DNA of 42,001 nt from Nanobdellota archaeon (GCA_038045005.1 JBBSYZ010000008.1:1-42001); one strand, 5' to 3'. Positions 595-35,860 are shown, counted from the first letter of the stretch. Notes: generated by a model not told the origin, from the sequence alone. Translations and numbers: made by a program.

Positions 595-659
595 GCGCAA
601 GAAAACTGACAAAAATCAGTTTTCTGCGCAGAAATGTGGTATCTTCCACATTTCTTGCG
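595..659. mobile_element. Bulged twin-hairpin micro-insertion with GCG duplication
   Basis: Two overlapping hairpins; removing 598-659 restores GCCAGCGTCGCAT, identical to 706-718. Confidence 0.7.
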
Positions 660-705
660 TCGCATACACAAAATGAGTACGCATTTTGGTCGCGACTTGG
701 CTCAC

Positions 706-926
706 GCCAGCGTCGCATAATCCGGTAGTGCGGCAGTCTCGAAAGCAACTTTTGGAAAGTTGCATCAAAATGGGGGCATAAAGCCCACCAAGAGTTAACT
801 GCTCCCTCTGGGATTCCCGGTTCAAACAAATGGTTACGCGCATTTGATACGCAAGAGCGGGTTAGGCATAAAGCCTAACGCACTGCGGATTAATGCGTAA
901 TCATTCTGAAAGTCCGGGCGCTGGCG
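706..926 (+). tRNA. tRNA-Ser(CGA) with two introns (744-796 at 37/38; 827-912 at 59/60)
   Basis: Acceptor GCCAGCG/CGCTGGC+G; stem GCAGT/ACTGC with CT-CGA-A; variable arm TCCCTCTGGGA; T arm CCCGG-TTCAAA..T-CCGGG. Confidence 0.92.
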
Positions 927-1003
927 CTTTTTTTTTACAACCAGCTTTTATCACCACATATTTTAAATACCATGCATTTTTCTTCATTGTGGAGGTGTCT
1001 ACT

Positions 1004-1411
1004 ATGACATATTATGAAACTTTGTTTCCGGTGATATTTTTAGCCGGAAGGATTATAGTCGGAGGATATTATCTTTTGAGCGCCGGCCATCATTTTCTCA
1101 AATTAGATATGCTGACGCAATATGCAAAATCTAAGAAAGTGCCGCTGGCAAGAGAGGCAGTACTGTTTTCCGGATTGCTTTTGCTGCTGGGAGGAGTTAG
1201 TGTCCTGCTGGGAGTCTATCCGCAAGCAGGAGTTCTGCTGTTAGTTCTATTCTTGACCGCGGCATCATTCAAGATGCACGATTTTTGGGCGGTGCCGGAA
1301 GAGCAGAAGATGGCTGAGAAGATGAATTTCCTGAAGAATATGGCTCTTCTTGGATCGGCATTGATGTGGCTGGCGATACAGACCCCTTGGGCTTTTAGCC
1401 TAACGATTTAA
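1004..1411 (+). CDS. DoxX family membrane protein
   Basis: SD GGAGGTG before ATG 1004; four hydrophobic segments; H-D-F-W and 'NFLKNMALLG' DoxX/SURF4 motif. Confidence 0.85.
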   Translation: MTYYETLFPVIFLAGRIIVGGYYLLSAGHHFLKLDMLTQYAKSKKVPLAREAVLFSGLLLLLGGVSVLLGVYPQAGVLLLVLFLTAASFKMHDFWAVPEEQKMAEKMNFLKNMALLGSALMWLAIQTPWAFSLTI

Positions 1412-1473
1412 TTTTATTTTTAATTTTATTTTTTAAAATTTATTAGGCCATAAATACAAGCAAAAAATGAAAA

Positions 1474-1660
1474 ACCCAGTCGCCCCAAGGGGCGGGGTAT
1501 CTGTAACAATATACCCTAAATATTTGGGCGCCTTGGTTTTTCGTCCAGAAAACATATATGAATGATTTATTTCATCCCAATCACCGCAAGCACACAATGA
1601 AGCAAAGACTTCATTGGTGCGCCAGTAAAATCGTTGTTTTACTGTGCGCGGAGGGGTATG
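1474..1660. repeat. REP-like hairpin cluster (hairpin + GGGGTAT); one copy interrupted by a twin-hairpin insertion at 1590-1649
   Basis: ACCCAGT-CGCCCC-AA-GGGGCG-GGGTAT (1474-1500); TCCCAATCACCGCAA[insert]GCGGAGGGGTATG (1575-1660); lies between convergent genes. Confidence 0.65.
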
Positions 1661-1673
1661 TTTTCTGAAATCA

Positions 1674-2738
1674 TCACAGCTTCAATCCTTCTTCCGCCAA
1701 TAATTGTCTCTGCCATTTCCTCAGGCAATCGGTTTTGTTAGCAGAAGCGATCTCGCTCATCTGTTCCTTGTTGATGATCAAATGCCCTTTGATGCCAATC
1801 TTGTCGGCTGCTTTCAGCTGCAGTTCATTAAGCTGTTCAAACAGGTCTTTCTGCTGCTGGGAATACCTCTTTTTTTCTTTGATTTGGATATCTACCGGCT
1901 CTCTATTCCCTTCCTCCACAGCAGCATAAAACTGAGCAGCTTCCTTCCGCACAATAGGATGAACTCCCCGCAGATTTTCCCATTGCGGCGGATGGAGAGA
2001 ACATTCACGCAGATGATTGTTGTTGATTATGAAATGCGACGGCCGATCAACTCTCTTAGCCAATTTCTGGCGGAGAAGAAACAATTTTTTGAAAATGCCC
2101 AGCTGTCCGGGAGAAAAAACTTTTACGCCGCGGACATCGATGAAAGCCTGTTCGTTATAACTAAAATCTGCCCGCTCCAGCACTGCAAATTCTTCTTCGG
2201 CCCAGGACCAGCGCCCTTTCTGCTGCAGTTCCTTTTTGAAAATGTCGCGAAGCTGGATCAAATATTGAGTGTCTTTTGCCGCATAAGAAAGCATTTTAGT
2301 ATCCAGCGGCCTTTTGGTCCAGTCTGCCATCTGGTATTTCCGCTCTTTTTCAATGCTAAAATATTCTCTCAGCAGATCGCCGAGGCCCAGCTGCTTTTTT
2401 CCCAGCAATAAAGCGGCCAGCTGCGTGTCAAAAACATTTCTGGGCCGGCATGAAAACTGTTCGTGAAGAATCCGGAAATCGAAACTCACGTCATGGAATA
2501 TTTTCTGAATGTTTTTATTTTCAAATATATCTGCCAGGGGCTGGATTTCCTTCATGACCAATACATCAATTATCCAGATTTTATCCAGACTGGAGATTTG
2601 AATCAAAGTGATGTAAGCTCCGTAATGATGGAGATTATTTTCGCATTCCAGATCCACTGCCAGATCAGCAGCGGAATTCCATTCCCGCACCGCTTCGTAG
2701 AGCGCATCTTTGGTATCTACATAAGTAAATGAAACCAT
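1674..2738 (-). CDS. rnd: Ribonuclease D-like 3'-5' exonuclease with HRDC domain
   Basis: DEDDy motifs DLECE, FHDVSFD, YAAKD; DWTKRPL motif; C-terminal HRDC-like 'RQKLAKRVDRPSHFII'. Confidence 0.88.
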   Translation of the reverse strand: MVSFTYVDTKDALYEAVREWNSAADLAVDLECENNLHHYGAYITLIQISSLDKIWIIDVLVMKEIQPLADIFENKNIQKIFHDVSFDFRILHEQFSCRPRNVFDTQLAALLLGKKQLGLGDLLREYFSIEKERKYQMADWTKRPLDTKMLSYAAKDTQYLIQLRDIFKKELQQKGRWSWAEEEFAVLERADFSYNEQAFIDVRGVKVFSPGQLGIFKKLFLLRQKLAKRVDRPSHFIINNNHLRECSLHPPQWENLRGVHPIVRKEAAQFYAAVEEGNREPVDIQIKEKKRYSQQQKDLFEQLNELQLKAADKIGIKGHLIINKEQMSEIASANKTDCLRKWQRQLLAEEGLKL

Positions 2739-2951
2739 AGCCCCAATATCTGATAAATATATATAAATATATGGCGGGTTTTTATTAAAATTAAGAGTAA
2801 TATCGTCAGGATAGGTTTCAGGTGGGTGGGGATGAAACTCAATGAAGGGGAATTGAAACCTGCCGGTGAATTCATCCGGAAGCAGATTTGGAATAATTGA
2901 TGGGAAGAAGGAATTTCAAAAATAAGCAGTGAAAAGTAAGGAATAAAAAAG

Positions 2952-3111
2952 TGCCCCGGCCGGGATTCGAACCCGGGTCACCGCCTATCCTTGGTTTCCC
3001 ACGAAAGGGCAGTATGATAGTTTGTCCCCAGACAAACTTTACATATCTGTTTGTCTTGGTCCGGATAGTGTCAATAAACCAGCAAAGATTTATCGTCTAC
3101 ACCACCGGGGC
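2952..3111 (-). tRNA. tRNA-Glu(TTC) with three introns (3066-3096 at 15/16; 3022-3060 in the D loop after GG; 2987-3001 at 37/38)
   Basis: Spliced sequence GCCCCGGTGGTGTAG-TCCGG-ACTATCATACTGCCCTTTCG-AGGCGGTGACCCGGGTTCGAATCCCGGCCGGGGCA folds as a canonical archaeal tRNA-Glu; each intron has a BHB-like junction. Confidence 0.88.
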
Positions 3112-3210
3112 GTTAATTGGCAAAACATTACCTGCTTTAAAAAGATTTCTGAGACTACTCGCTTAATCACAACAAAAACCTTATAAAACGAAATCCAAAT
3201 TCACCCCTGC

Positions 3211-3576
3211 ATGAAAGATAAGGTTATTTTACGATTGACTGAAAATGTTACTGTTAAAGGCAACAACGGACAGGAGGCTAAAGTGGTAGCTAGAATCGAT
3301 ACCGGAGCTACTTCTTCCTCTATCGATGAATCACTAGCAGGAGAACTGCAGCTAGGCCCGGTCCTGCGTTCTAAAGTGATTAAATCTGCGTCGGGAATCC
3401 GTAAACGGCCAGCGGTAAAAGTTACAGTGATCTTAAAGGACATCTGCATCGAAGAAGAATTTACTCTGGCTGACCGAAGCCACATGACCTACAAAATGCT
3501 CATAGGCCAAAATGTGCTGAATAAAGGCAATTTCCTTATCGATCCGTCTAAAGATGCAGAACCGAGGGATAAATGA
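3211..3576 (+). CDS. RimK-associated retropepsin-like (putative ATP-dependent zinc protease family) protein
   Basis: ARIDTGATSSS aspartic-protease motif, 'FTLADRSHMTYKMLIG'; overlaps rimK start (ATGA). Confidence 0.85.
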   Translation: MKDKVILRLTENVTVKGNNGQEAKVVARIDTGATSSSIDESLAGELQLGPVLRSKVIKSASGIRKRPAVKVTVILKDICIEEEFTLADRSHMTYKMLIGQNVLNKGNFLIDPSKDAEPRDK

Positions 3577-4652
3577 AAGCCGCGCTCATCTCGCTGGGAA
3601 GTAAAAGTTCAGAGATGTCCGGGGAAGCCATGAAGAAATATTTCCAGCAGGTAGACTTGCTTTACCTGACCAAGATTGAAGTGCGCCTGGGAAAAGAAAG
3701 CGGCATCTTCTATGAAAATAAGCCGCTTGATAATTACGACTGCGTCTATGTAAAAGGCTCATTCAGATATGCTAATCTGCTCTGTTCCATCGCTTCCATG
3801 CTGGAAGGAAAAGTTCCGTATATGCCCCTTCCTGCCAATGCCTTCACTACTGTGCATAATAAACTGCTAACGCATCTGGTGCTTCAGCAACACAATATCC
3901 CCATGCCCCGAACTTATATTTCTTCCACCACGGAAACTGCAAAAGAACTGCTTAAGCGGGTCAATTATCCAATAGTTATGAAGTTTCCTGAAGGAACACA
4001 GGGAAAAGGGGTTATGTTTGCCGATTCAATAAGTTCTGCTTCTTCGTTATTGGATGCCTTAGGAGTTCTTAAGCAGCCGTTTATCATTCAGGAATATATC
4101 GATACCGGAGGCACAGATATCAGAGCTCTGGTGGTCGGAGATAAAGTTATAGCCGCCATGAGAAGGAAAGCGCAGACTGAAGAAAAAAGAGCAAACATCC
4201 ATGCCGGAGGAAAGGGACAACCGGTGCAATTAAGTCCTGCGATAATCAATCTGGCGCTGGCTACCTCCAAAGCATTAAAAACAGATGTTTGCGGAGTCGA
4301 CATCCTTGAAGGACCGACCGGGCCGCTGGTTATCGAAGCTAATATTTCTCCCGGACTGCAGGGGCTGGGTGAAGTAAGCACGCTCGATCTTCCGGATCAA
4401 ATCGCTAAATTTTTATTTCGCAAAACGGAAGAGATACTCAACGCAAGCAGGAGAACTGCCTCTGACACAGCAATAAAAGAACTTACTGAAAAAGGTCCAG
4501 AAAGCCCGCAGGAAATTATCACGCGGCTGCAGTTTCGTGGAGAACGTATACTTTTGCCGGAATGGATCACTAGAATCTGCAAATTCCAAGAGCTGAAAGA
4601 ATTTTCCGTAAAAACCAAGAAAGGAAAAGTAGATATTGAAGAGATGAAGTGA
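3573..4652 (+). CDS. rimK: RimK family alpha-L-glutamate ligase (ATP-grasp) with C-terminal extension
   Basis: GTQGKGV, IIQEYI, DIRALVVG, RANIHAGG, GVDIL, EANISPG motifs. Confidence 0.88.
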   Translation: MKAALISLGSKSSEMSGEAMKKYFQQVDLLYLTKIEVRLGKESGIFYENKPLDNYDCVYVKGSFRYANLLCSIASMLEGKVPYMPLPANAFTTVHNKLLTHLVLQQHNIPMPRTYISSTTETAKELLKRVNYPIVMKFPEGTQGKGVMFADSISSASSLLDALGVLKQPFIIQEYIDTGGTDIRALVVGDKVIAAMRRKAQTEEKRANIHAGGKGQPVQLSPAIINLALATSKALKTDVCGVDILEGPTGPLVIEANISPGLQGLGEVSTLDLPDQIAKFLFRKTEEILNASRRTASDTAIKELTEKGPESPQEIITRLQFRGERILLPEWITRICKFQELKEFSVKTKKGKVDIEEMK

Positions 4653-4722
4653 GGGAGTTGCGGCCTTATAATCCAAAAAACACTATTTATTCCTTGATAT
4701 CATAATTCTTAAGAATAATAAT

Positions 4723-4989
4723 TTATTTCCTTTTTCTCACTGACTTGGTAGCTGATTTTAATGGTGTTTCCCACCTGCGCTTCGGCTTGAACCAGGCCAG
4801 ATAGATGATCGGCAGCAATCCAAAAGTGTTCAGCAGCAGCATGGCAATGAACCAGCCCTTTTGCTTATTCTCTGCGGCATGCCATAACGCAAACCCTTTC
4901 CACGCCAATTCCCAAACTGAAAGCAAAATCAGAATCACTAAAAAACTCTCCGACTGTTGGTACAGACTATACATCACGGTTTGATACAT
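4723..4989 (-). CDS. Small membrane protein (DUF5652-like)
   Basis: 'WELAWKGFALWHAA..QKGWFIAMLLLNTFGLLPIIYL' pattern. Confidence 0.75.
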   Translation of the reverse strand: MYQTVMYSLYQQSESFLVILILLSVWELAWKGFALWHAAENKQKGWFIAMLLLNTFGLLPIIYLAWFKPKRRWETPLKSATKSVRKRK

Positions 4990-5125
4990 AAAAAGGAAAA
5001 CTCATCATAGATATTTAAATATTTGTATTTTTGAATCTGCCAGCTCATCTGTGAGCAACTATACAAAACCAAAGAAAAAACAAAATAAAACAAAAAAATA
5101 ACTGAGAAAAGAAACCTAAAAAAAT

Positions 5126-5338
5126 TCACTTCTTCTTTTTCTCTGACATAGCGCAATGGCCGCACATAGGCTTAACGAGCTTTATAACTCCTGCTACAAC
5201 TAATAAGCCGCCAAGAACAAGCCGCCAGTCAAGTGAAGACCACCAAAGAGCCCAAACTAAGACTAAAACCCCTAGTACTAGTTTCTTAACTCCATGGCAA
5301 CGCACACACATACCATCCGAACAACATCCGCAACCCAT
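5126..5338 (-). CDS. Small two-TM protein with Cys clusters
   Basis: SD GAGGTGA before ATG 5338; CGCC/CVRC at N-terminus, CGHC at C-terminus. Confidence 0.7.
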   Translation of the reverse strand: MGCGCCSDGMCVRCHGVKKLVLGVLVLVWALWWSSLDWRLVLGGLLVVAGVIKLVKPMCGHCAMSEKKKK

Positions 5339-5392
5339 TGTATTCACCTCATAAAAGTTGATACAACCAGAATAGTAAAAGAATATAAAAGG

Positions 5393-6265
5393 CTATCTCT
5401 TTTTCTTGCTTTTCTCGATTCCGCGTATTTTTTCTAAATCATCCAGAATGTCCGAAGCGATAAACACATACCCTTTCTTTTTCTTCAGCAGCTGGTCGCC
5501 GACAAATCCGTTGATGTATGAAGCAGCAACCGCGCTTTTGAACAGATCTTTGGATTTGGCTAAGAAACCTGCCGCTAACCCCGCTAAGATGTCTCCGGTG
5601 CCTCCTTTGGTCATGCCTTGATTACCGGTCCGATTAAAAGCAATTTTATTGACTGAGATAATTAAATCTGTAGGTCCTTTCACCAAGAGAACATTATTAT
5701 TCTGCAGAAAATAACGCAGATTGCCTTGCAAAATTTCCGCTTTCTCCTTGGCGTTTGCTTCCCGCAGTTTAGGCAGTAAAAACTCCTTATTGCTGTGCAC
5801 CAGCATCAACTCTAATTCAGTTTCGTGCGGAGTCACGATGCTGTTATTGAAATCTTTAAAAGAAAGGGATTTTAAAGCGTCGGCGTCAATTACTTTCAAT
5901 TTCTGTGACTTATGCACAAAATACTGGCAGAACTTTTCTGCTTTTCGAGTAACTCCGTTGCCTATCAGGACCGCATCAAACTTGTCTGCGTATTTCACCA
6001 TCTCTTTGGCGTTCTTGATCGTGAAAGTGCTCCCTTTAACTTTGTAAGTCATCAAATCTGGCGTATATTGATGTACTGCCCAAGCTACTTTCTCCGGCGC
6101 AGCTACTGTCGCCATGTCGCAGCCGGAGCGGAGAGCCGCCAAACCAGCCAGAACCACTGCACCTACATATTCCTCTGAACCGCCGATTATCAGCGCGTGG
6201 CCATTCTCTCCTTTATGAGAAGTCTTTTTCCTCTCCATTAACTTTTTAATTTGATTTATGTTCAT
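5393..6265 (-). CDS. nnrD: ADP/ATP-dependent NAD(P)H-hydrate dehydratase
   Basis: HKGENG, IGGSEEYVGA, DADAL, TPHETE, GGTGDILAG motifs. Confidence 0.92.
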   Translation of the reverse strand: MNINQIKKLMERKKTSHKGENGHALIIGGSEEYVGAVVLAGLAALRSGCDMATVAAPEKVAWAVHQYTPDLMTYKVKGSTFTIKNAKEMVKYADKFDAVLIGNGVTRKAEKFCQYFVHKSQKLKVIDADALKSLSFKDFNNSIVTPHETELELMLVHSNKEFLLPKLREANAKEKAEILQGNLRYFLQNNNVLLVKGPTDLIISVNKIAFNRTGNQGMTKGGTGDILAGLAAGFLAKSKDLFKSAVAASYINGFVGDQLLKKKKGYVFIASDILDDLEKIRGIEKSKKKR

Positions 6266-6443
6266 GGGATACGAAAATTAAGAAAATATTTATTTTTTGG
6301 TTTAAATAAGTTTGTAGTAATTGGGGGGTAGATAAAAGCAGGTTATAAGCTTCGTTTAAAAAGAATTTAAAAGCCTAGCTAAAAAGAGAACCGCTTCCAA
6401 AACTACAATAAACCTTTTAAAGAAGAATACTTCCCCCCTTCCC

Positions 6444-6643
6444 GGCCCCATAGCTCAGCCTGGTTCAGAGCGCTGGTCTTATACGACCATTAATGGCACA
6501 ATTTAACCAAACCATTAATTCCGCTTGGAAAGCCAGAGGTCCTGGGTTCAAAACAAATGTCACGCCATTTGCGAGGCGGAGAGATTTCGCAGGTGCTCAA
6601 TCCCAAGTAATCGTGACAATTGGTGAAAGTCCCAGTGGGGCCA
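6444..6643 (+). tRNA. tRNA-Ile(TAT) with two introns (6484-6530 at 37/38; 6553-6629 at 59/60)
   Basis: Acceptor GGCCCCA/TGGGGCC+A; D arm GCTC/GAGC; stem CTGGT/GCCAG with CT-TAT-A; T arm CTGGG/CCCAG; anticodon call assumes the canonical intron position (BHB helix is weak). Confidence 0.75.
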
Positions 6644-6732
6644 CTTTTTTCATAAAACAATTACCTCCCACGACCATATCTTCTTTTATCATTTTTTTCA
6701 AAAAGCATTATCGACGGCATTATCAAAAAACA

Positions 6733-7320
6733 CTAAGAACACTGTTCATTTACGCTGTCCAAAGTCATGGTAAAAGAAATTCCTTTGATTACAGGATGAG
6801 TGATGATGCCGCTAGTTTCTTTCTCCTGCAAGGTAATCACTTGCTCGCCGATGATTTTGCCGGTGGTCTTTTTAATGACGGTAATAACCACGAGCGGATC
6901 TTCGCCCTTGCAGTAAGGCATAGTCTTCATCAGTCTCCATTCCAACGCTCCGGCATAAGTATAACTTCCCCTGCCCATGGTTAAATCATACACTTCTTTA
7001 TCGCTGGTAAATATCTTTGCGCCGGAGATGCTGCATTTTTCTTCGCAATCAGTTTCAAACAGGCTGCTTAACGTCTTGCAGGTTCCTTCGATGCATAAAA
7101 AATCCTGCTGACAATCGCTGTTATACTCGCAGGCAGGCGGCGTTTCCGGGGTTTCCGATTCTTCCGAAGGCTCTGCTGCAGAGATATTTTCAATATCCGC
7201 GATCGTTCCTGCACTATCTTCTGAAGTTACAGGAACAGCTGATTTATTGGGGCCGCAACCGACCAGGATAATTGAAATAAACAACCATATACAGATTAAA
7301 AAAATAGATCTTATCTTCAT
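6733..7320 (-). CDS. Putative lipoprotein with Cys-rich segment
   Basis: Lipobox-like LVGC after a hydrophobic signal; acidic linker; C-x4-DC-x5-C-x4-C motif; SD GAGGT. Confidence 0.75.
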   Translation of the reverse strand: MKIRSIFLICIWLFISIILVGCGPNKSAVPVTSEDSAGTIADIENISAAEPSEESETPETPPACEYNSDCQQDFLCIEGTCKTLSSLFETDCEEKCSISGAKIFTSDKEVYDLTMGRGSYTYAGALEWRLMKTMPYCKGEDPLVVITVIKKTTGKIIGEQVITLQEKETSGIITHPVIKGISFTMTLDSVNEQCS

Positions 7321-7530
7321 TTTACCTCTCGTGCAAAAAATGGAGAAGGATTATATAAACTCTTCTGCCAGCAAATTTCCGGGCATATAAACTATTTCGC
7401 AGCCAAAACTTTCGAGACAGGTTTTACAACCATTCGATAAACCAGCTGGATTTAACAAGCTCAACCTCTTCTTTCGAATCTGGCTGCTGTAACAATTAAA
7501 TCATTGAAATTTAAATGCTTATCTATACTC

Positions 7531-7695
7531 GGCTAATATGAAACCCTATGCTTCGCAGGTCACTAACAGCCTCGCTAAACCGATGTTTTACGTCGTTGGT
7601 CGGCGTTCCCCGTAAGGGACAAGCCCCTTGCCGACGTGAATGTGATTTTTGAACACGCTCGGAAAGGGTTAGTGACCGAGGGTTTCATATTAGCC
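7531..7695. mobile_element. MITE, 165 bp, 17-bp perfect TIR, 9-bp target-site duplication
   Basis: GGCTAATATGAAACCCT (7531-7547) / AGGGTTTCATATTAGCC (7679-7695), flanked by TCTATACTC at 7522-7530 and 7696-7704; no ORF. Confidence 0.92.
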
Positions 7696-7704
7696 TCTAT
7701 ACTC

Positions 7705-7846
7705 TAAGAAATAATAATAGAAAATAATAGTAAAAGATAATAATAGAAAATAGCAGTGAAAAATATAGGATAATAACCATGGATATGAAATGATAGCTAC
7801 GATAAATAATGATAATAATGGTGATAGTCGCAATGAAAAGAATAAC
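7705..7846. repeat. Low-complexity A/T-rich (ATA/AAT-like) tract
   Basis: Degenerate ATAATAG(A) units downstream of tRNA-Gly(GCC). Confidence 0.6.
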
Positions 7847-8032
7847 TGCGGTAGCGGGGACTTCCGCGGCATTTCCTGCCTTTCGAACCCCGGTCACAGC
7901 CTCATTACAGACTTTTACAATCTTTCGTCAAGGGGGGACTAAGGAGTAAACTCCGAAGGTCGCCCGCTTTTTACGAGATTTTTTGCAAAAATCTCTGGCA
8001 AGGCCGTATACTAACCACTATACTACTACCGC
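7847..8032 (-). tRNA. tRNA-Gly(GCC) with two introns (7903-7995 at 37/38, 93 nt; 7861-7881 at 59/60)
   Basis: Acceptor GCGGTAG/CTACCGC+A; stem CGGCC/GGCTG with TT-GCC-A; BHB helix TTGC/GTAA; T arm CGGGG/CCCCG. Confidence 0.9.
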
Positions 8033-8116
8033 ATCAAGAATGCAAAATGCAGATTATTAATAAAGTTTATCGTTTTATACATTAAAAAAGATAAAAAGAA
8101 AAAAAAACAAACGATT

Positions 8117-8476
8117 TTATTTTCTTGCCAAGGAAAATGCAGCTCGCAGTGCCACGATTATAGTAGCAGGGACGAACAAAGTCAAAATTGATTGTAGAAC
8201 CCCGACTAAAACATCAACTCCGGCGCCTTGGACTGAACCTAAAACATTTGCTCCCAGGAACGATACTAAAACAAGCACGGTTCCGCTGGTCAGGAACGCA
8301 GAAGTCTCCTGCGAGGTAATGTTCAACAACCCCACGACTAAACCTAGCAAGAATACAACCCATAACATTTGCCCTGCGTACGGACCGGTAAGTCCGACTC
8401 CCAGAAGCACTGCTAGGACCAATCCGACTAGAAATGACCAAGCTCCAAGCATATTGCTGGCACCTAATTTCTTCAT
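8117..8476 (-). CDS. Hypothetical 4-TM membrane protein
   Basis: SD GAGGTG; four hydrophobic helices; 'GLVVGLLNIT..E..AFL' pattern. Confidence 0.8.
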   Translation of the reverse strand: MKKLGASNMLGAWSFLVGLVLAVLLGVGLTGPYAGQMLWVVFLLGLVVGLLNITSQETSAFLTSGTVLVLVSFLGANVLGSVQGAGVDVLVGVLQSILTLFVPATIIVALRAAFSLARK

Positions 8477-8665
8477 TTAAAACACCTCTTTTTTTGTATT
8501 GAAGCACAAATATTCCTAAAAATATTTGACACTTCGCACATAATTGGAAACGTTATGTTCCCACACAGATATTGTAGAAAAACTTTTTCATTTATAAGAG
8601 TTTTGATTTTGGGAACACTAAAACAAACAAAAACTTAATAAACCAACCTAAACTCAAGAGAAAAT

Positions 8666-8822
8666 CCCCCCTTAGTTTAGCGGCTAGAACACTCGGCTGT
8701 AGAAACTCTTTAGAATTGTCACCGATGACTGAAATGAAAAAGAGTCAGCCAGTAGTCACCGAGGAATCCCCGGTTCGAAAAAACAACAAACCAATTGTTG
8801 TCTGAAAATCCGGGAGGGGGGA
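8666..8822 (+). tRNA. tRNA-Tyr(GTA) with two introns (8703-8757 at 37/38; 8780-8808 at 59/60)
   Basis: C1-G72 acceptor CCCCCCT/AGGGGGG+A; stem CTCGG/CCGAG with CT-GTA-G; short variable loop typical of archaeal tRNA-Tyr. Confidence 0.92.
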
Positions 8823-8870
8823 CTTTTTTCTTGACACGGTAAACACTAAAAGATGTGCGAAAACAGAAAG

Positions 8871-8879
8871 CTTTATAAA
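8871..8879 (+). promoter_or_regulatory. TATA box (CTTTATAAA) with purine-rich BRE upstream of the hairpin/tRNA-Asp/tRNA-Lys cluster
   Basis: GAAAGCTTTATAAA about 25 nt upstream of the hairpin at 8903. Confidence 0.6.
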
Positions 8880-8978
8880 CAACCCCCCGTTTTTATCGAA
8901 AAATGACAGCAAACCTTCTATATGTTACCCTCTAAAAGTGGAAATTTAACATATAGGCGAAGTGCTGTCATAAAAAAT

Positions 8979-9123
8979 GCCCTGGTAGTGTAGTGGCCTA
9001 GCATGGGGCCCTGTCGTAATCATTTGGGGGTATGGCCTAAATGATTTGGAGAAAGGCCCCGACCCGGGTTCGAATGTGGTTGGGAGAGGTTTCACAATCA
9101 GTAAGAAAATCCCGGCCAGGGCG
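8979..9123 (+). tRNA. tRNA-Asp(GTC) with two introns (9017-9053; 9075-9109)
   Basis: Acceptor GCCCTGG/CCAGGGC+G; stem GGGCC/GGCCC with CT-GTC-G; T arm CCGGG/CCCGG. Confidence 0.92.
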
Positions 9124-9129
9124 TTCCTT

Positions 9130-9266: not shown

Positions 9267-9302
9267 CTTTATATTCAATTGAAAAAACATCATAGGGGGT
9301 AA

Positions 9303-9551: not shown

Positions 9552-9557
9552 TAAAAC

Positions 9558-11030: not shown

Positions 11031-11032
11031 AA

Positions 11033-12838: not shown

Positions 12839-12877
12839 ATATAAAAAAAAATATAAATAAAAAATAAAGGAATCAAA

Positions 12878-19952: not shown

Positions 19953-23210
<3,258 letters not shown>

Positions 23211-27907: not shown

Positions 27908-27919
27908 TTTGCATTTACC

Positions 27920-29778: not shown

Positions 29779-29804
29779 TTTTATAAATTGTCCATAGTTT
29801 TATT

Positions 29805-30356
29805 TCAATCTCTCCTTATTCCTCTTACCCGGCAATAAACTGAATAACTGGGCAGTATTTCGTCGCTTATCCTGATTTCAGCAAGCTTTTCGCGCGTATC
29901 AATAACAATTTCTCCCCGTTCCAGCGCATAATTTTCTGGAAGTATTTCTGTATAATCATCAATATGGTTAAGATCCCTTTTACCGCAGTATCTTCGCTTA
30001 ATTTTTTTTCGGTTAAACCCAAGCTCTGCAAGAACATCGTCAATCTGCGAGTCTATGCGCATAGCTTCATCATAAACCCTGGCTCTTTCCCACTGGCACA
30101 GACAGCGCATCCCCGATAGCAGCACATTATAATCTGCCGGATTGCCGTCAATTTTTCCGTCAATTTCAGGGAACAGCAAATCGTGCGCATTCGCGCCTTC
30201 GAAAGGCAGCTTGGCCAGCAGATAGCCGGTATTAGTCTGCTGATTATATAATCCCAGCCCCAAAGCAGCAGAAAGAGATATGGTTGACCCTATCAAAGGC
30301 TCTTCAATCTTCGTCAACGGCCAGCCGATATCCACCCTAATGATATTCCAGTTCAT
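29805..30356 (-). CDS. Hypothetical protein, weak CheD-like pattern
   Basis: 'TISLSAALGLGLYNQQTNTGYLL' resembles CheD 'TxGLGSCVGIALYD..GGLAH' but lacks the Cys and His. Confidence 0.55.
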   Translation of the reverse strand: MNWNIIRVDIGWPLTKIEEPLIGSTISLSAALGLGLYNQQTNTGYLLAKLPFEGANAHDLLFPEIDGKIDGNPADYNVLLSGMRCLCQWERARVYDEAMRIDSQIDDVLAELGFNRKKIKRRYCGKRDLNHIDDYTEILPENYALERGEIVIDTREKLAEIRISDEILPSYSVYCRVRGIRRD

Positions 30357-30404
30357 TCCTGTTCACCAGTTTTGAATATTGTTTAAAACAAAAAAATAAA
30401 AAAT

Positions 30405-30674
30405 TTAGTATCTTATATTGATGATACGCAGAGGTCGGTAAGCAAACCATCCTTGGTTTAGTTCTTGGCCTACTGCTTTATCTGAAGCTGCGTCAACAGT
30501 TTCTACAGGTTTACGCCTATACTTATCAAACCAAGCACTAAACCCTATGCTTCGAAGCAATTCCGCTTCTAATTGGGCTTCTTGGTTCGGTTTAAAGCTG
30601 ATAGCAATCTTATTGTAGCTTGCAGCGGTCTGTTCTAAATCTAATGGTATTTGTGTCATTTTAGGTAACCTCAT
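30405..30674 (-). CDS. Hypothetical protein
   Basis: ATG-initiated 89-aa ORF heading a co-directional gene run; TTTATAAA upstream. Confidence 0.55.
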   Translation of the reverse strand: MRLPKMTQIPLDLEQTAASYNKIAISFKPNQEAQLEAELLRSIGFSAWFDKYRRKPVETVDAASDKAVGQELNQGWFAYRPLRIINIRY

Positions 30675-30785
30675 TGGTACTCTTTTTTTAACTTAAAATG
30701 AGCTCAGAGTTTATAAATCTTACCACGATTTACTACGGTACAGTAGATAATAAGGTTTAAAATCGCAGCAGTTTACTTAGTGGAC

Positions 30786-31148
30786 ATGACTTCAGAAAAC
30801 TGGTGGTGGGGGCGTTCTGCCTCTGTTGATTTGCACGGCTGCGATCCTCTGTTGGTAAAGAATCCTGCAGCTATCCGGCGTTTCATACGCACCTTGATAA
30901 CAGAATTGAAAATGAAACGCGTCGGCCCGGCGATAATCAAGCGTTTCGGCCACAAAAAACTGCGCGGTTATTCCCTGATGCAGTTCATCGAGACCAGCAC
31001 CATCACGGCTCACTTCGATGAGCAGGGCAACCGGGCGTTTATCGACATCTTCAGCTGCAAGACTTACGACACTAAGAAAGTAGCGCTGTTCTGCAAGAAA
31101 TTCTTTAAGGCTAAGGATTACGTGCTGTATGTGGAAGAGAGAAGATAA
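30786..31148 (+). CDS. speD: S-adenosylmethionine decarboxylase proenzyme
   Basis: DLHGC, GYSLMQFIET|S self-cleavage site, H, DIFSCK motif. Confidence 0.9.
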   Translation: MTSENWWWGRSASVDLHGCDPLLVKNPAAIRRFIRTLITELKMKRVGPAIIKRFGHKKLRGYSLMQFIETSTITAHFDEQGNRAFIDIFSCKTYDTKKVALFCKKFFKAKDYVLYVEERR

Positions 31149-31223
31149 AACTAAAGATGATACGTAAGCATATAGAAAGATATTTATAATCTATTTCTTC
31201 TATAAAGAAGAAAGAGGCGCAAG

Positions 31224-31697
31224 ATGGTTTTTCGCGAAGAAGACAAACATTTCTTATCTTCATTATACATAGCTGTTGCCATTATCTTGACCTGGAAAGG
31301 GCTGTGGACAGGCATTTATGAAGTACCTTTCATTGGCAGCTTGCAATGTAAAATTTTAGGTCCATACTGCGGATCGTTCGTATTCCTCTTCATAGGTTTT
31401 GCCATGCTTATGTTCTCGGGAGCAATTTTCAAAGAATTTGATCCTCTGGGGGGGATCCAAAAAGCAGTAAATAAAACTTTGCATTCTATTTATACCCACC
31501 AGGATAAAAAAAATTTTCAATTTAAATATTATGATAAATCACAAAAAAAGAATGTTGCCATTCCGGCTGCTTGGGTAAAAAAAATAGAAAAAGACGCTTT
31601 AATAGTTGTGCTCCCGCACCAGAAAAAGGAGATATTCATCCCCATACACAGAGTAACAGAAGTTCTTTACAAAGGAAAGAGTTACTGGAGACTATAA
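31224..31697 (+). CDS. Two-TM membrane protein with C-terminal MJ1316/DUF504-like domain (paralog 1)
   Basis: Two hydrophobic helices (W.G.W), then 'FKYYD...FIPIHRVTEVLYKGKSYW'. Confidence 0.7.
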   Translation: MVFREEDKHFLSSLYIAVAIILTWKGLWTGIYEVPFIGSLQCKILGPYCGSFVFLFIGFAMLMFSGAIFKEFDPLGGIQKAVNKTLHSIYTHQDKKNFQFKYYDKSQKKNVAIPAAWVKKIEKDALIVVLPHQKKEIFIPIHRVTEVLYKGKSYWRL

Positions 31698-31698
31698 T

Positions 31699-32133
31699 AT
31701 GATGGCTTGGGAAGATATAAAAAAATATTTTTGGTACCTCTTTGGCATCATAGGGGTGGTATATTTCTGGGCGGGTGTCTGGGATGGAGTTGGAAGCATC
31801 GGACCGCTTCAAAATCCGCTTTATAGTTTTATTGCCGGCGTAGTTTTACTCAGTCTCTCCCGTGTGATCCTTAAAGATGCCAATCCCTTATGGGGCTTAG
31901 AAAAACCGGTCAAATTAGAGGCCAAGAAAGTACACCGCCATCCGCAGAAGCAGGAGTTTCATTTCAAGTATGAAGACCATATGAAAAACAAAGAGCTTCT
32001 GTTTCATGCACAGAAATTAAAAAGGATTGAAAAAGAATTCTTAGTCTTCCTGGACCACGGAAAAGAAGTCTTCATCCCTTTGCACCGAGTAACCCAAATC
32101 ATGCATAAAGGAAAGACGCATTGGAAGGCATAA
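31699..32133 (+). CDS. Two-TM membrane protein with C-terminal MJ1316/DUF504-like domain (paralog 2)
   Basis: Same architecture: WAGVW, 'FKYED...FIPLHRVTQIMHKGKTHW'. Confidence 0.7.
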   Translation: MMAWEDIKKYFWYLFGIIGVVYFWAGVWDGVGSIGPLQNPLYSFIAGVVLLSLSRVILKDANPLWGLEKPVKLEAKKVHRHPQKQEFHFKYEDHMKNKELLFHAQKLKRIEKEFLVFLDHGKEVFIPLHRVTQIMHKGKTHWKA

Positions 32134-32134
32134 G

Positions 32135-32602
32135 ATGCAATACTTAAATAAGGAAGCGATTACCCCGTTGATGATCGCGTTCCTGCTCATCTCCTTTGCA
32201 GTTGCGGTCGGAGTGGTGATCATGAATTTAGGTAGCGCAGAAGTGGAAGATAAAGCGGAATGCGCCATCGAGATCGGGCTGCGATTTTCTGAAATAAGCG
32301 GCAAAGAGCAGATATGTTATGATGCTGATAAAAAGATATTCGCATTTGCGGTAGAAAACGGAGTCAATATCAATGTAGAAGGCCTGGTGGTGAACATCAT
32401 CGGGACGGAAAAAGCAGAAACCTTTGAATTGAACGAAGCGAAGATGGGGAAAGCGGCGGTATATTTAGGAAGAGTGCCGTTTGATACCGCTTCATCCGGA
32501 GAGATCAGGCAGGTAAAAATATCCCCAAAGATCATTCCTTACGATCAAGAAGAAGTCTGCATCGAGCAGGCCATTTTAGTAGAAAGCGTTAAAGCCTGCT
32601 GA
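32135..32602 (+). CDS. Archaeal type IV pilin-like protein
   Basis: Class III signal-like N-terminus NKEA|ITPL + hydrophobic helix; two-Cys globular domain ending in Cys. Confidence 0.75.
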   Translation: MQYLNKEAITPLMIAFLLISFAVAVGVVIMNLGSAEVEDKAECAIEIGLRFSEISGKEQICYDADKKIFAFAVENGVNINVEGLVVNIIGTEKAETFELNEAKMGKAAVYLGRVPFDTASSGEIRQVKISPKIIPYDQEEVCIEQAILVESVKAC

Positions 32603-32641
32603 AATATATATCGGTTGATGTTTTGCCCCATATGATTTTAG

Positions 32642-33430
32642 GTGGAAAAAATGGAAATTGAAATTAATCTAACCAAATCAATTGAAGAGAACGCAGGAAA
32701 ATATTTTGAATCCGCCAAGAAAGCCAAGAGGAAAGCAGAAGGAGCCAAAAAAGCCCTGGCTGAGACTAAAAAGAAACTAGAATTGCTGTTGAAACAGGAA
32801 TCAAAATTTCTGGAAGAAACTGCTGTCAAGCAGGCCAACCGGCAAAAGAAGCGCGAATGGTATGAAAAATTTCACTGGTTCTTCTCCTCAGAAGGGTTCT
32901 TGTGCGTCGGCGGAAAAGATGCGACCTCTAACGAGATCATAATCAAGAAACATCTGGAAAAAAATGACTTGGTTTTGCACACGGATATGGCCGGTTCTCC
33001 ATTTTTTGTCATCAAGAACGGGCAGGAAGCCGGAGAACAGACCATCAAAGAGACAGCGCAGGCCGTAGCCGTGTATTCCCGCGCCTGGAAATTGTGGCAC
33101 ACTTCTGCGGACGTATTTTATGTCAAGCCCGAACAGGTGACTAAGGAAGCCAGACCGGGAGAATATCTGGCCAAAGGAAGTTTCATGATTTACGGCAAGA
33201 CCAATTATCTTCATCCCTCTCTGGAATATGCCATCGGGCTGGCCGACGGAGAGATCATCGGCGGACCAAAAACCGCAGTAGAAAAAAACACCAAATCTTT
33301 TGTGGTAGTAATCCCGGGAAAAGAAAATAAGGGAAGTTTAGCCAAAAAGATCAAACATAAACTTAAGGGGGGAGATTTGGATGATATTATCAAGTTTCTT
33401 CCTGCTGGCGGCGGGGAATTGAAAAGATAA
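32642..33430 (+). CDS. NFACT RNA-binding domain (DUF814) protein, short RqcH/NEMF-related form
   Basis: ENAGKYF, WYEKFHWF, GGKDATSNE, H.D..GSP, GEYL.KGSFMIYG. Confidence 0.9.
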   Translation: MEKMEIEINLTKSIEENAGKYFESAKKAKRKAEGAKKALAETKKKLELLLKQESKFLEETAVKQANRQKKREWYEKFHWFFSSEGFLCVGGKDATSNEIIIKKHLEKNDLVLHTDMAGSPFFVIKNGQEAGEQTIKETAQAVAVYSRAWKLWHTSADVFYVKPEQVTKEARPGEYLAKGSFMIYGKTNYLHPSLEYAIGLADGEIIGGPKTAVEKNTKSFVVVIPGKENKGSLAKKIKHKLKGGDLDDIIKFLPAGGGELKR

Positions 33431-33786
33431 TGGGATCCGAACTAAAACTGTGGGAAATTGTTATCCGTTACGATGCTCACCATATCGATGGTATCACCCC
33501 TCTGAAAAAATCATACCAAGTCATCGGAATAGATAAAGAAGAAGCGCTGGAAAAAGCCCGTTCTCTGTTTTCTGAGCAGGAATGGAAAGGAAAAGAACTT
33601 GTAGAAAATGCCGGGTACATAAGCAGAGAAGTTACGCTTGACAACTATAGAGAAAGTATCCGAGAATATCGTAAAAAAATCCCTGCGCCTGAAATGAATG
33701 GCCCTGATGCACGGAAATTCAAATTAACACCCAGAATATCAGATGATGGCAGGAGCATTGAGTTTATTGTCAATGAGAAGCCATAA
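33430..33786 (+). CDS. Hypothetical protein
   Basis: Translationally coupled (TAATG) to the NFACT gene. Confidence 0.7.
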   Translation: MGSELKLWEIVIRYDAHHIDGITPLKKSYQVIGIDKEEALEKARSLFSEQEWKGKELVENAGYISREVTLDNYRESIREYRKKIPAPEMNGPDARKFKLTPRISDDGRSIEFIVNEKP

Positions 33787-33854
33787 AAGCGCGGAGAGTA
33801 AGCCATTCTAATACATCAACGTTTTTAAAGAAAAGGCATTTTTAACTATCTTAT

Positions 33855-33978
33855 GCCCCCGTCGTCTAGCCTGGATAGGACGCGAGCTTGCGGTCAGGAA
33901 CGACAAAAAGCTTGAAGCCGGAGTTCAAAATCAGCGGCTGCTGAAATCAGATGCTGGATGAAATTCTCCGCGGGGGCG
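33855..33978 (+). tRNA. tRNA-Arg(GCG) with two introns (33894-33908; 33930-33964)
   Basis: Acceptor GCCCCCG/CGGGGGC+G; D loop AGCCTGGATA; stem CGAGC/GCTTG with TT-GCG-G; T arm CGGAG/CTCCG. Confidence 0.9.
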
Positions 33979-33983
33979 TTGCG

Positions 33984-34005
33984 GCGGGGGCGACCCCGCT
34001 TTTTC
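33984..34005 (+). terminator. GC hairpin plus T-tract after tRNA-Arg
   Basis: GCGGGG-GCGA-CCCCGC-TTTTT. Confidence 0.55.
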
Positions 34006-34025
34006 TTAATCATCCAAATAAAAAA

Positions 34026-34457
34026 TCATTTCTCGAACACGGCATCAATCCCGTTGATATGCTGAATATCACGACTGAATCCGTAGTAGGTATCAAGAGC
34101 TCTAAGGCGCAGAGATTTAAACGGGCCGTATTCGATATTATGTCTTAAGTCTAAAATCTGGCAGGCATCGTCTTCTCCAACAATCTGTTCATGATAAGCG
34201 CCGGCCACGTCAAGGCGATAAATACGCGGCCGGTACAGCTGCAGGATTAAGTCGCATACTTCAGAAAATTCCTGTCCGCCGGAAGCTAACGACCACCCGC
34301 CCGTTTTCTTAAAAATATCTGCAAGATCGGATGCGACAAGCTGGTCCTGCAATCCATATCTAACCCGTAGTCGTAATAATCCGGTTTCCCAAATAATCTC
34401 TACCGCAGACTGCGGCGAACTTGATAAGACCGGATAGTCCATTTTTATTTTGTCCAT
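34026..34457 (-). CDS. Hypothetical protein
   Basis: Likely start ATG 34457 (MDKIKMD), which avoids overlap with the upstream gene. Confidence 0.6.
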   Translation of the reverse strand: MDKIKMDYPVLSSSPQSAVEIIWETGLLRLRVRYGLQDQLVASDLADIFKKTGGWSLASGGQEFSEVCDLILQLYRPRIYRLDVAGAYHEQIVGEDDACQILDLRHNIEYGPFKSLRLRALDTYYGFSRDIQHINGIDAVFEK

Positions 34458-34501
34458 GTTTATTTGAAAAAAGATTTTATTTGAAAAGCCGCCCGTTATT
34501 T

Positions 34502-35035
34502 TCAATTGAATTTCCCAGTGCATTTTAGGGGAAGCAGATGACACTCGCCGCCGGCGCCTAATTGCTGCAAGGCTTCGTTTATTTTTTTGATGTGTTCTTC
34601 CGCTGCTGGTTCCCACCCGGAGATATCGCAGACGCGCAACGCCTGAAAGACATCCTGCGGCACATAACTTGTTGCCTTATAGTTTCCGTGGTGAGTTAGG
34701 ACCGCGGCAAGATTTCCCACCGCCTGCGGCTTTAAACGAGATTGGTAGGATTTAAAATAAGGCACCGATTCAAGCCGGATTTTTGCGACAAAATCTTCAG
34801 TGAGGGGAACTTCAGCATATTCATTTCCTGCGACTAAACCTTCAAAATCAAATCCAAGTGTTCCTTTAGAAACTTCAATAATATGTTCCACTCCTGCCGG
34901 GGCATTTGGATCACGCCCCACTACTTCCACATCTTGTTTTGCAAACCAATCCAGCCATTCCACGATATCCATCTTATCACGTGCATAAACATCTCTGACG
35001 GGGAAAAAAGCGAAGGGAAGCTTATAGAGAACCAT
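34502..35035 (-). CDS. Hypothetical protein
   Basis: 177-aa ORF with GTGGT SD-like site, co-directional with neighbours. Confidence 0.7.
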   Translation of the reverse strand: MVLYKLPFAFFPVRDVYARDKMDIVEWLDWFAKQDVEVVGRDPNAPAGVEHIIEVSKGTLGFDFEGLVAGNEYAEVPLTEDFVAKIRLESVPYFKSYQSRLKPQAVGNLAAVLTHHGNYKATSYVPQDVFQALRVCDISGWEPAAEEHIKKINEALQQLGAGGECHLLPLKCTGKFN

Positions 35036-35045
35036 TCTAATACCA

Positions 35046-35462
35046 CTATAGATTATACAGTTTTAAGTTGGGTACTTCAACGTTGCAATAAGGGCAATTG
35101 TGGGGCATTTTCTTGGAAGGATCGTACTTGAATTTATAAGCGCACTTAAAGCAGCCCAGCTTCACCAGATTGCTGCCGGGAATCTTTTCAATGTTAGTTT
35201 GTGGCTCGCTTTGCCGTTTAAGCCTAGCCATCTTTTCCAGGTATTCGTCCTCTTTATCCCAGCCGGCCGGCTTTCTCTGCTCAGCCGGAGCCGCTACGGC
35301 TGCTGCCTTTTTTCTTTCTTCCTGCTCAAACTTCCCGCTGGTGCAGTTCGGACATACTACCTGTTTATATTTATAATGCAGCTTAAATTGGCTGGCGGGG
35401 GCAAAACCCTTGCAAACACGGCATTGTATACGCAAATTGTCATCCATATTCGCGTAAAACAT
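35046..35462 (-). CDS. Double zinc-ribbon protein
   Basis: CRVC..CPNC and CFKC..CPYC separated by a charged linker. Confidence 0.8.
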   Translation of the reverse strand: MFYANMDDNLRIQCRVCKGFAPASQFKLHYKYKQVVCPNCTSGKFEQEERKKAAAVAAPAEQRKPAGWDKEDEYLEKMARLKRQSEPQTNIEKIPGSNLVKLGCFKCAYKFKYDPSKKMPHNCPYCNVEVPNLKLYNL

Positions 35463-35520
35463 GAGGAGATATTTATACTTTTTGGGTGCGGAAAAGAATT
35501 ATTTGCATGATAAATCAAAA

Positions 35521-35860
35521 ACCCAATCGGAGCAGAGCTCCGGGGTATGAATCAAAATCCCCACAGCAAGCTGTGGGGTATGAAATGTAACTACAGCTTT
35601 GCTATTTAGCGTGGGGATTTTGGTGCAAAAAGGGATAGATTTCCCTTTTGCACAGAAGGACTTTGTCCTTCTTGTGTTGCTTTCGTATCCCCACTGCAAG
35701 CAGTGGGGTATACTCATCAACAATCAATATTGGGTTTTTGGTACATTCCTTGGGTCTAATTGCATCGCAGTAGAACTGCGGGGTACATGAAATACAACAT
35801 GGATTGTATTTCAGTACTAAAAATCAATAGTTTTTGATTTTTATGTATGTGACCCAGCGG
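35521..35860. repeat. Cluster of REP-like hairpins (..GGGGTAY) with a twin-hairpin insertion at 35623-35676
   Basis: Copies at 35521-35547, 35557-35581, 35687-35711, 35766-35786; additional bulged hairpin at about 35816-35848. Confidence 0.8.

Follow-up and report, generated by a model that had tools for sequence, protein, structure and literature searches.

What are the double hairpins that interrupt the genome of a DPANN archaeon, and by what means did they get there? The question arises from a 42,001-nucleotide stretch of the Nanobdellota archaeon assembly GCA_038045005.1 (JBBSYZ010000008.1:1-42001), here called the window, in which an initial annotation had marked three loci where two overlapping hairpins with single bulged bases seemed to have been inserted. 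It had proposed a non-autonomous mobile element recognized by its structure and belonging to no named family. We refer to this unit as the twin. Each copy is a pair of adjacent hairpins, and a site that receives one grows by the core and by a second copy of a 2-nt target sequence. Across many sequences, Watson-Crick pairing has been kept both in the stems and between the center of the element and its flanks. On balance, we lean toward reading twins as mobile DNA elements of very small size that are non-autonomous, confined to a single taxonomic family of DPANN archaea and recognized as folded DNA with a guide-like center.

Four twins in the window

We searched the window with a covariance model built from 74 copies, all taken from genomes other than the window's own (G000, in which the window is contig C8). 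Four loci matched, each on both strands (Table 1), with E values from 1e-16 to 4e-6; the next match had an E value of 0.69. The three annotated loci were all where they had been placed, and a fourth copy had been missed. Folded as single-stranded DNA, every copy gave two adjacent hairpins of -15 to -23 kcal/mol (z -5 to -8), and for each copy none of 200 shuffles folded as well. Folding also bore out the bulges described for the first three loci: an A at the 5' foot of the first hairpin and a T at the 3' foot of the second. All three likewise show the TGC(G/A)C junction. Flanking duplications had been given as GCG, GC and GTG; duplications are indeed there, but the true repeat is 2 nt (CG, GC and TG), and what exceeds it, a G or C, is part of the conserved ends.

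Might a hairpin-rich genome produce such pairs by chance? G000 contains 158 perfect hairpins (stem of at least 8) and 29 adjacent pairs. Twenty dinucleotide-shuffled versions gave 48 to 65 hairpins, with no adjacent pair in 19 of them and a single pair in the remaining one, so that the excess over shuffled sequence, which the annotation had posed as a check, was observed.

Table 1. Twins and related features of the window (positions from the first nucleotide of the window)
Feature	Position	Strand	Model match	Bits	Flanking repeat	Core	Center	Remarks
Copy 1, main type	596-659	both	595-660	82	CG, 596-597 and 658-659	60 nt, CA..TG, 598-657	GCGC, 626-629	Fold -22.4 kcal/mol, z -7
Copy 2, subtype with 8-bp stems	1590-1649	both	1590-1649	37	GC, 1590-1591 and 1648-1649	56 nt, 1592-1647	GC, within GTGCGC	
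Copy 3, short subtype	35624-35676	both	35623-35677	36.5	TG, 35624-35625 and 35675-35676	49 nt, 35626-35674	GCAC	
Copy 4, main type	35784-35847	both	35783-35848	73	TA, 35784-35785 and 35846-35847	60 nt, 35786-35845	GTAC	Splits a GGGGTA/TG motif
Uninterrupted paralog of the sequence split by copy 1	706-718	+						GCCAGCGTCGCAT; 13 nt, weak alone
165-bp IS5-type MITE	7531-7697							Empty at TA 7613-7614 and TG 7629-7630; paralogous copies hold twins at those sites

Twins are exact insertions

Filled and empty versions of the same site were found in another repeat, a 165-bp miniature inverted-repeat transposable element (MITE) of IS5 type. The copies of this MITE in the window, at C40:3680-3844 and at C15:54235-54399 are empty. 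The copy at C15:53031-53257 holds a twin at CCCCG-TA-AGGG, and the copy at C20:23806-24094 holds one at the TA site and a second at CCCCT-TG-CCGACG. Each insertion measures 62 nt, that is, the 60-nt core CA..TG and a TA or TG repeat. At the empty copy in the window, loose contig ends at 7629 and 7631 in sequencing runs X9 and X10 read into twin sequence. Twins also insert into one another: one was nested at the exact center of a second. Metagenome contigs often terminate inside twin copies. The annotated view of a mobile element is upheld to this extent: twins are multi-copy, non-coding insertions with exact filled and empty sites.

The empty sites reconstructed for the window by the annotation could be reproduced. 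Deleting 598-659 yields GCCAGCGTCGCAT, identical to 706-718, although a match of 13 nt is weak alone; deleting 1592-1649 restores CCGCAAGCGG-A-GGGGTATG. We compared these loci with G002, a close relative at ~90% identity. It shares the insertion of copy 1 at the identical site and carries, directly after it, an extra twin-like insertion of ~59 nt where the window is empty. Copy 2 lies inside a block (~1448-1672) that G002 lacks at the orthologous place. The interval 1465-1676 (~210 bp), which holds copy 2, is itself a repeat, 97-98% identical at G000 C12:6318-6525 and C26:1836-2047 and also present in another relative, G012. Copy 3 sits within a 178-bp repeat (35550-35727) that is 98-99% identical to several places in G012. 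At the orthologous locus in G012, the whole block 35549-35848, with copies 3 and 4, is missing; the intergenic block is absent from G002 too, where its bounds are slightly wider. Copies 2 and 3 thus ride inside larger repeats and are not independent insertion events, as each window copy had been taken to be.

We also looked for polymorphism in sequencing data. Among assembled contigs from four runs, compared over window positions 1-9000, no contig joint skipped a window twin; rare variants drop out of contigs, and this comparison is therefore uninformative on polymorphism.

Stems change sequence and stay complementary

Copies were collected from public records with a pattern that fixes GAAA/TTTC, GYRC and the final TG only; stem tops and flanks were left unconstrained, which avoids circularity in the tests below. 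The pattern matched at least 116 stretches, 80 of which were listed. The main type reads R-[YR]-CA-[WGAAA-N5-loop-N5'-TTTCW]-G-[Y'R']-C-[WGAAA-N5-loop-N5'-TTTCW]-TG-[YR]-Y, around a conserved core CA-WGAAA..TTTCW-GNNC-WGAAA..TTTCW-TG; over the subtypes, core length ranges from 49 to 60 nt. The loop is MAAMKA in hairpin 1 and the complement in hairpin 2, with a flipped loop in 2 of 74 copies. The layout has two-fold symmetry: the reverse complement looks the same, and the model scores the two strands alike (82/81 and 73/73 bits for the two main-type copies of the window). The left bulge is an A in 73 of 75 copies, though the collecting pattern does not require it.

Subtypes differ in how the hairpins close. 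In that of copy 2, the stems measure 8 bp, and the closing helices, 4 bp each, share the central GC. A further subtype comprises a copy in the gene for cysteinyl-tRNA synthetase (CysRS), described below, and the extra copy of G002; here the closing helices do not overlap and the pairs are self-contained. The annotation had spoken of conserved structure with little conserved sequence. The first part stands, since the stems co-vary; the second is only partly right, since the main type has a clear conserved core, and the impression arose because the three loci first noted represent three different subtypes.

Are the variable stem tops truly kept in pairs? All five free pairs were complementary in 64 of 75 copies for hairpin 1 and in 56 of 75 for hairpin 2, compared with 4.2% in a cross-copy control, and these stems comprised 43 different 5-mers. 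In an alignment of 74 rows, 97.6% of cells were paired (75.5% in shuffles) and 423 cells had changed on both sides (145 in shuffles); none of 500 shuffles reached the observed pairing or this count. Sliding the partner lowered pairing to 42-56%. The stems therefore co-vary, and hence structure matters. Pairs of the G-T type occupied at most 11 of 1,702 cells and were no commoner than other mismatches. Their near-absence fits a constraint on DNA pairing or a copying mechanism, not an RNA helix.

The center of the twin complements its target repeat

The flanks lay outside the pattern with which copies were collected for the analysis of the center. The two flanking dinucleotides were identical in 82 of 89 copies in one set and in 107 of 115 in another. 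Moreover, left repeat, right repeat and the reverse complement of the center all agreed in 64 of 75 copies; a second set gave 76 of 89. Because the center is complementary to the flanks, each hairpin continues for three further pairs past its bulge, and the two continuations are in competition for the center. Among 89 copies, the right-hand repeat was TG in 24, TA in 20, CA in 20 and CG in 17. Agreement extended to a case that is not pyrimidine-purine (TT with AA, in G209) and to the single copy in G117, a genome of a distant family (CA with TG). An identical pair of hairpin modules was found at different loci with different centers, each center fitting its own flanks. At one orthologous site (L121 compared with L140), left flank and center had changed as a pair.

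The empty sites that we reconstructed share a palindromic consensus: T-rich from -9 to -7 (44-47 of 107), followed by G at -5, R at -3 (where 2 of 107 have C) and a YR repeat, mirrored on the right by Y at +3, C at +4 and an A-rich run from +7 to +9 (48-56 of 107). It resembles, in register, the abutted ends of the element, TTTCWTG-NN-CAWGAAA. The annotation had suggested that twins insert, as a rule, into other structured DNA. We rejected the idea that targets are hairpins: outside the repeat, flanks were no more self-complementary than the cross-copy control. We conclude that the element does not specifically seek hairpins and that its target is a short palindromic consensus.

Twins are spread through one family of archaea

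The host is a DPANN archaeon, and its relatives are labeled Woesearchaeota/Nanoarchaeota. Its assembly comprises 497 kb in 41 contigs and is 72% complete; the genomes of relatives measure 0.9-1.3 Mb. DNA of this kind occurs in 14 DNA sequencing runs, from groundwater or an aquifer where the source is recorded; no RNA run appeared among those listed. Among the matches listed, public records with the element were metagenome-assembled genomes labeled Woesearchaeota, Nanoarchaeota/Nanoarchaeia or "archaeon", together with some third-party assemblies labeled "uncultured Methanosarcinales".

How widely are twins distributed? BLAST with copy 1 found matches in all 15 other genomes of the genus and little elsewhere, which gave the impression of a genus-only repeat. 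The covariance-model scan of genome and relatives that the annotation had called for corrected this impression: it was positive in 62 of 76 sampled genomes of the taxonomic family, in 47 of 58 genera, and negative in 14. It found ~25 copies in G000 (49 strand-hits), and strand-hits per family genome reached ~68, the scoring cap. A strict pattern, sought in 301 genomes sampled across the order, was present in three of them, two in the family (G000 and G209) and 1 of 296 outside it; a backwards control gave 0 everywhere. The neighbors of the single copy in G117 are housekeeping genes (PCNA, RNase J, YjeF). A scan of viral contigs gave one pattern match, which lacks hairpin complementarity and which we dismissed as chance.

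Most twins lie between genes, and some lie in frame within them

The 28 copies considered in G000 lie mostly between genes, and the orientation of the neighboring genes follows no rule. Likewise, 86 of 89 main-type copies with room to judge lie outside long open frames. There are exceptions. At C22:2161-2225 of G000, a 60-nt insertion adds 20 residues in frame to the linker of CysRS; it is absent from the seven orthologs that were aligned (11 fetched) and from the orthologous place in 12 of 12 matching genus genomes. Relatives of this copy, 88-97% identical, lie elsewhere in G001 and G011. At C20:13190-13256, an in-frame insertion of 63 nt (~21 residues) interrupts a member of a multi-copy protein family of ~250-300 residues, P0001; the closest ortholog (in G012, at 74% identity) is without it.

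For four of six copies of the CysRS subtype, the reading frame stays open across the entire fetched stretch; the frame is the same in all four, and these copies encode a peptide close to KEQ[LR]FL[WR]GTNGR[KE]PSHFVKG. Members of this subtype (L198, L194 and L195 in G001, and C22:2161-2225 in G000) are thus mostly inside reading frames and add approximately the same 20-residue peptide to unrelated proteins.

For this minority of twins (CysRS, P0001 and the four copies of one subtype), there is a bacterial likeness. Rickettsia palindromic elements are palindromic repeats inserted in frame in protein genes and translated (PMC10969869). Twins differ from them in length (60-63 nt compared with ~150 bp) and in their archaeal host; we saw no obvious sequence likeness, and most twins are intergenic.

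How might twins move?

If twins are recognized and moved as folded DNA, the form handled would most likely be single-stranded. A 62-nt circle of core plus repeat would collapse into an almost fully paired dumbbell: in computation only, its junction pairs with the center and nothing but two loops and two bulges is left unpaired. The central G-NN-C may act as a guide that pairs with the target dinucleotide, comparable to the internal guide of IS200/IS605 elements. The right-hand "duplicate" would then possibly be carried by the element and not made by a staggered cut, and the enzyme would be supplied in trans. A bolder version, which we think unlikely, is that DPANN archaea carry a DNA-guided, structure-specific form of transposition in which a ~62-nt single-stranded dumbbell circle pairs through its center with the target, served by an enzyme that is either outside the known transposase families or a housekeeping one. 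Its stems would be re-templated in each cycle and would therefore stay perfect while diverging fast.

Several observations weigh against recognition as guided, folded DNA. An ordinary target-site duplication of 2 bp, left by a DDE enzyme, would account for the 2-nt repeat equally well. Unlike IS200/IS605, the element has two-fold symmetry, and neither strand is therefore special. Center and flanks disagree in 11 of 75 copies, and in the orthologous pairs at L039 and L113 both flanks changed together while the center matches neither, which a guide model does not predict. The subtype of the CysRS copy and the extra G002 copy has no clear repeat. Among assembled contigs, no circular or excised form of a twin was seen. 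Lastly, no enzyme is tied to the element. The annotation had looked to Y1 (HUH) or RAYT proteins. Y1 genes (PF01797) are patchy: they occur in 8 of the 16 genomes of the genus and in 22 of 61 from the family, and were not found in the nearly complete, twin-rich genomes G341 (2 contigs), G337 (8 contigs) and G005 (96% complete). The six Y1 loci scanned as possible partners (L141-L146) all carry other hairpins, and we rejected them; the proposed link was not supported. The Y1 match in G000 (C32:116-574) looks decayed after the HuH motif.

Could twins instead be ordinary cut-and-paste MITEs? This alternative survives best, though we hold it to be improbable. A DDE transposase (Tc1/IS630- or IS30-like) would bind the duplex CAWGAAA/TTTCWTG and make a 2-bp staggered cut, and the hairpins would be a side effect or would serve the host, for example in termination or RNA stability. 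Terminal inverted repeats, the 2-nt repeat in 107 of 115 copies, the palindromic target and the intergenic bias (86/89) all suit it, and CA..TG ends with a 2-bp duplication are reminiscent of Tc1/IS630. A Woesearchaea genome with 105 MITEs per Mb, noted without detail in a MITE census, also counts in its favor (PMC11602168). However, a search of 10 genomes for IS630-type DDE_3 (PF13358) found it in none; such transposases as do occur, of the IS5 family and IS481-like, differ in their ends and come with duplications of 9-10 bp; and only about one copy in four (20 of 89) has TA as its repeat, the duplication being any YR and occasionally TT or AA. Each inverted repeat of a twin is moreover itself a compensated hairpin, and the center complements the duplication; binding to duplex DNA accounts for neither.

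The autonomous partner that such a MITE would have did not appear either. In 1.45 Mb of loci we found no long element with twin ends, and the Y1, IS481-like and serine-recombinase loci are without them. Of the family hairpins in the 1.45 Mb, 285 form part of twins; a further 44 are "solo", nearly all of them being one half of a degenerate twin. The annotation had also envisaged reverse-transcriptase or transposase genes flanked by the same hairpins; no transposase in the loci scanned carries twin ends. Tyrosine recombinase and reverse transcriptase genes each occur in 5 of 5 genomes, with no tie to the element; IS110 occurs in 1 of 5 and TnpB in 0 of 5.

Two candidate partners connected with the 165-bp MITE were rejected. 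The ends of this MITE read GGCTAATATGAAACCC, its duplication measures 9 bp (in the window, TCTATACTC), and its partner is a 1-kb IS5-family insertion sequence with identical ends (G012 locus L192:1430-2452; G000 C9); that insertion sequence accounts for the MITE, not for twins. At C15:53031-54399, two inverted MITE copies, the left one twin-bearing, frame the gene for an IS481-like transposase of 291 aa, which scored 207 bits where the cut-off is 224. The flanks of this gene are unrelated 165-bp MITE copies and not twin ends.

A site-specific serine recombinase is a less likely prospect, and we judge it quite improbable. Abutted twin ends would make a ~26-bp site with a 2-bp crossover core that recombines with look-alike genomic sites of the same core. 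In its favor, both junctions share one core, the abutted ends are matched in register by the target, and the rare flipped loops (2 of 74 copies) would fit. A gene for such an enzyme (~265 aa, with Resolvase and Recombinase domains and no C-terminal zinc ribbon seen) is present, mostly as a conserved single copy, in 27 of 76 family genomes; by tally it occurs in 14 of 29 twin-rich and 1 of 14 twin-free genomes, which are kin and not independent. But Y1 is similarly loosely associated (~12 of 20 twin-rich and 2 of 14 twin-free genomes, again kin), and both genes may merely mark genomes rich in mobile DNA. The recombinase was not found in the twin-rich genomes G000, G005, G003, G209, G353 and G331, and no twin-like sites occur within ~1.5 kb of three of its genes (L211 in G337, L212 in G360, L213 in G381). 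Among nearly complete twin-rich genomes, G005 and G353 are without both genes, G341 and G337 without Y1, and G331 without the recombinase. A 62-bp duplex circle would, we infer, be mechanically implausible, and stem covariation is left unexplained.

Enzyme-free template switching, at a 2-nt microhomology beside a hairpin-stalled donor, deserves less credence still. Hairpins are known to promote template switching, and the process would account for the donor's dinucleotide at new sites, with flank and center match inherited from the donor, and for the fact that no transposase was found. But over 100 copies end precisely and identically, the target consensus extends ~9 nt to each side, and the element is spread over 47 genera. 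The bulged A and T are also kept, whereas template switching tends toward perfect palindromes.

Least likely of all is a resident functional element (intron or small RNA, protein-binding site or terminator) kept by selection, with mobility secondary: the paired changes at an orthologous site and a related strain in run X9, with no listed difference over 598-659 while the flanks differ (a small sample), would fit it, but Rfam gave no match, pairs are Watson-Crick with almost none of the G-U type, both strands are equivalent, neighboring genes have no consistent orientation, bulges are single nucleotides, and the copies in genes are in frame and read through.

Relation to known systems

Is the twin a known element under another guise? 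By the generic definition it is a MITE: short, non-coding, multi-copy, with terminal inverted repeats CAWGAAA..TTTCWTG and a duplication. Its size, inverted repeats, 2-bp duplication, CA..TG ends and mostly intergenic position also recall Tc1/IS630 MITEs, from which it departs as described above. A review lists archaeal MITEs only for Sulfolobus, Halobacterium, Haloquadratum walsbyi, Desulfurococcus and "several other" archaeal genomes (PMC10969869).

REPINs (or BIMEs, served by RAYT) share with twins the form of short, extragenic, high-copy inverted pairs of bulged hairpins that are lineage-specific and non-autonomous, with the enzyme in trans. REPINs carry GT[AG]G at the hairpin foot, where twins have [YR]-C-A and no GTAG in the consensus. 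In place of one long hairpin, twins have two side by side; their 2-nt flanking repeat is paired with the center, and their host is archaeal. The RAYT gene of a REPIN system is single-copy, flanked by the repeats and found wherever they occur. For twins no RAYT was found, Y1 is patchy and Y1 loci have hairpins of another kind.

IS200/IS605 elements and their gene-less PATEs also have hairpins at both ends and a right end that resembles the target, and the IS200/IS605 intermediate is a single-stranded circle. They read the target by base pairing with a short internal guide, and the Y1 proteins that a 2018 survey saw in archaea were of the IS200 type only (PMC6006769). In twins, one central guide would serve both ends, by plain Watson-Crick pairing and with only 2 nt read. 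The ends are not strand-specific. IS200/IS605 elements insert without duplication 3' of a fixed tetra- or pentanucleotide that pairs with an internal guide. The dinucleotide that flanks twins also pairs with the center (64 of 75 copies) and varies from copy to copy; it may be either carried by the element or duplicated.

Integron attC sites provide another parallel. These combine conserved structure with variable sequence, their extrahelical bases are important, and an internal inverse core complements the flanking core repeats; each consists of one imperfect hairpin, has R and L boxes (GTTRRRY), adjoins a cassette gene and has IntI as its enzyme. Twins share the fixed structure, the variable sequence and the inverse-core complementarity, but have two hairpins, no cassette and another core. 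Archaeal introns are marked at their boundaries by a bulge-helix-bulge motif, two 3-nt bulges on opposite strands with a 4-bp helix between them. The bulges of twins are single nucleotides, and copies in genes are multiples of 3 that are read through.

Rfam gave 0 matches at gathering scores in the window and, at E values up to 0.1, only an unrelated tRNA at 19 copy-bearing loci, where ARAGORN found no tRNA. Our literature searches found no description of the twin architecture, though the supplementary MITE lists of PMC11602168 could contain it. The annotated judgment that this is not a named family accords with these searches. In our best reading, the twin is a new element of MITE/REPIN-like kind that lacks the defining features of REPIN/RAYT systems, Tc1/IS630 MITEs, bulge-helix-bulge introns and every Rfam family.

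Other features of the window and its relatives

Among the proteins encoded in the window are a split RpoB, RpoA'/A'', an archaeal CCA-adding enzyme, SMC and GyrB, which mark the organism as an archaeon. The GyrB gene (19956-23210) is interrupted by an intein, with an Intein_splicing match at residues 457-882.

The larger insertions at 35549-35848 and ~1448-1672 are built of units that join a short GC-rich palindrome to GGGGTAT(G/C/A). The 300-bp block 35549-35848 lies directly 3' of a pre-existing ..GGGGTATG, and its own end reads ..GGGGTA[twin]TG. Insertion beside a fixed motif that is also carried at the element's own end is a signature of IS200/IS605-type or REP-like elements, and this family of palindrome plus GGGGTAT repeats may be served by the patchy Y1 genes.

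Sequences at ~485-588, 165-345 and 706-935 resemble a tRNA-Gly(CCC) with a T-loop intron and two tRNA-Ser (UGA, CGA) with several introns; they were called by neither ARAGORN nor Rfam. Ahead of each tRNA-Ser-like gene, the first 13 nt of that gene occur as a separate copy; twin copy 1 splits one of these 13-nt copies. The intron content of these tRNA-like genes differs between G000 and G002.

Reverse-transcriptase genes lie at C10:4209-4826 and C7:226-849 of G000, on C24 of G003 and on C29 of G015. In both G003 and G015, one such gene adjoins a P0001 homolog, which suggests diversity-generating retroelements with P0001-like targets.

Implications

Twins would be a rare documented case of a REPIN/MITE-like system in DPANN archaea. 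Genomes of ~1 Mb are expected to hold little selfish DNA, yet many of these carry tens of copies. Since twins break metagenome assemblies, nest in repeats and add 20-21 residues to proteins, an aminoacyl-tRNA synthetase among them, they matter for annotation, strain typing and protein evolution. The rule by which center and flanks pair is simple and can be tested; it suggests that targets are read through DNA-DNA pairing and might lead to a new enzyme.

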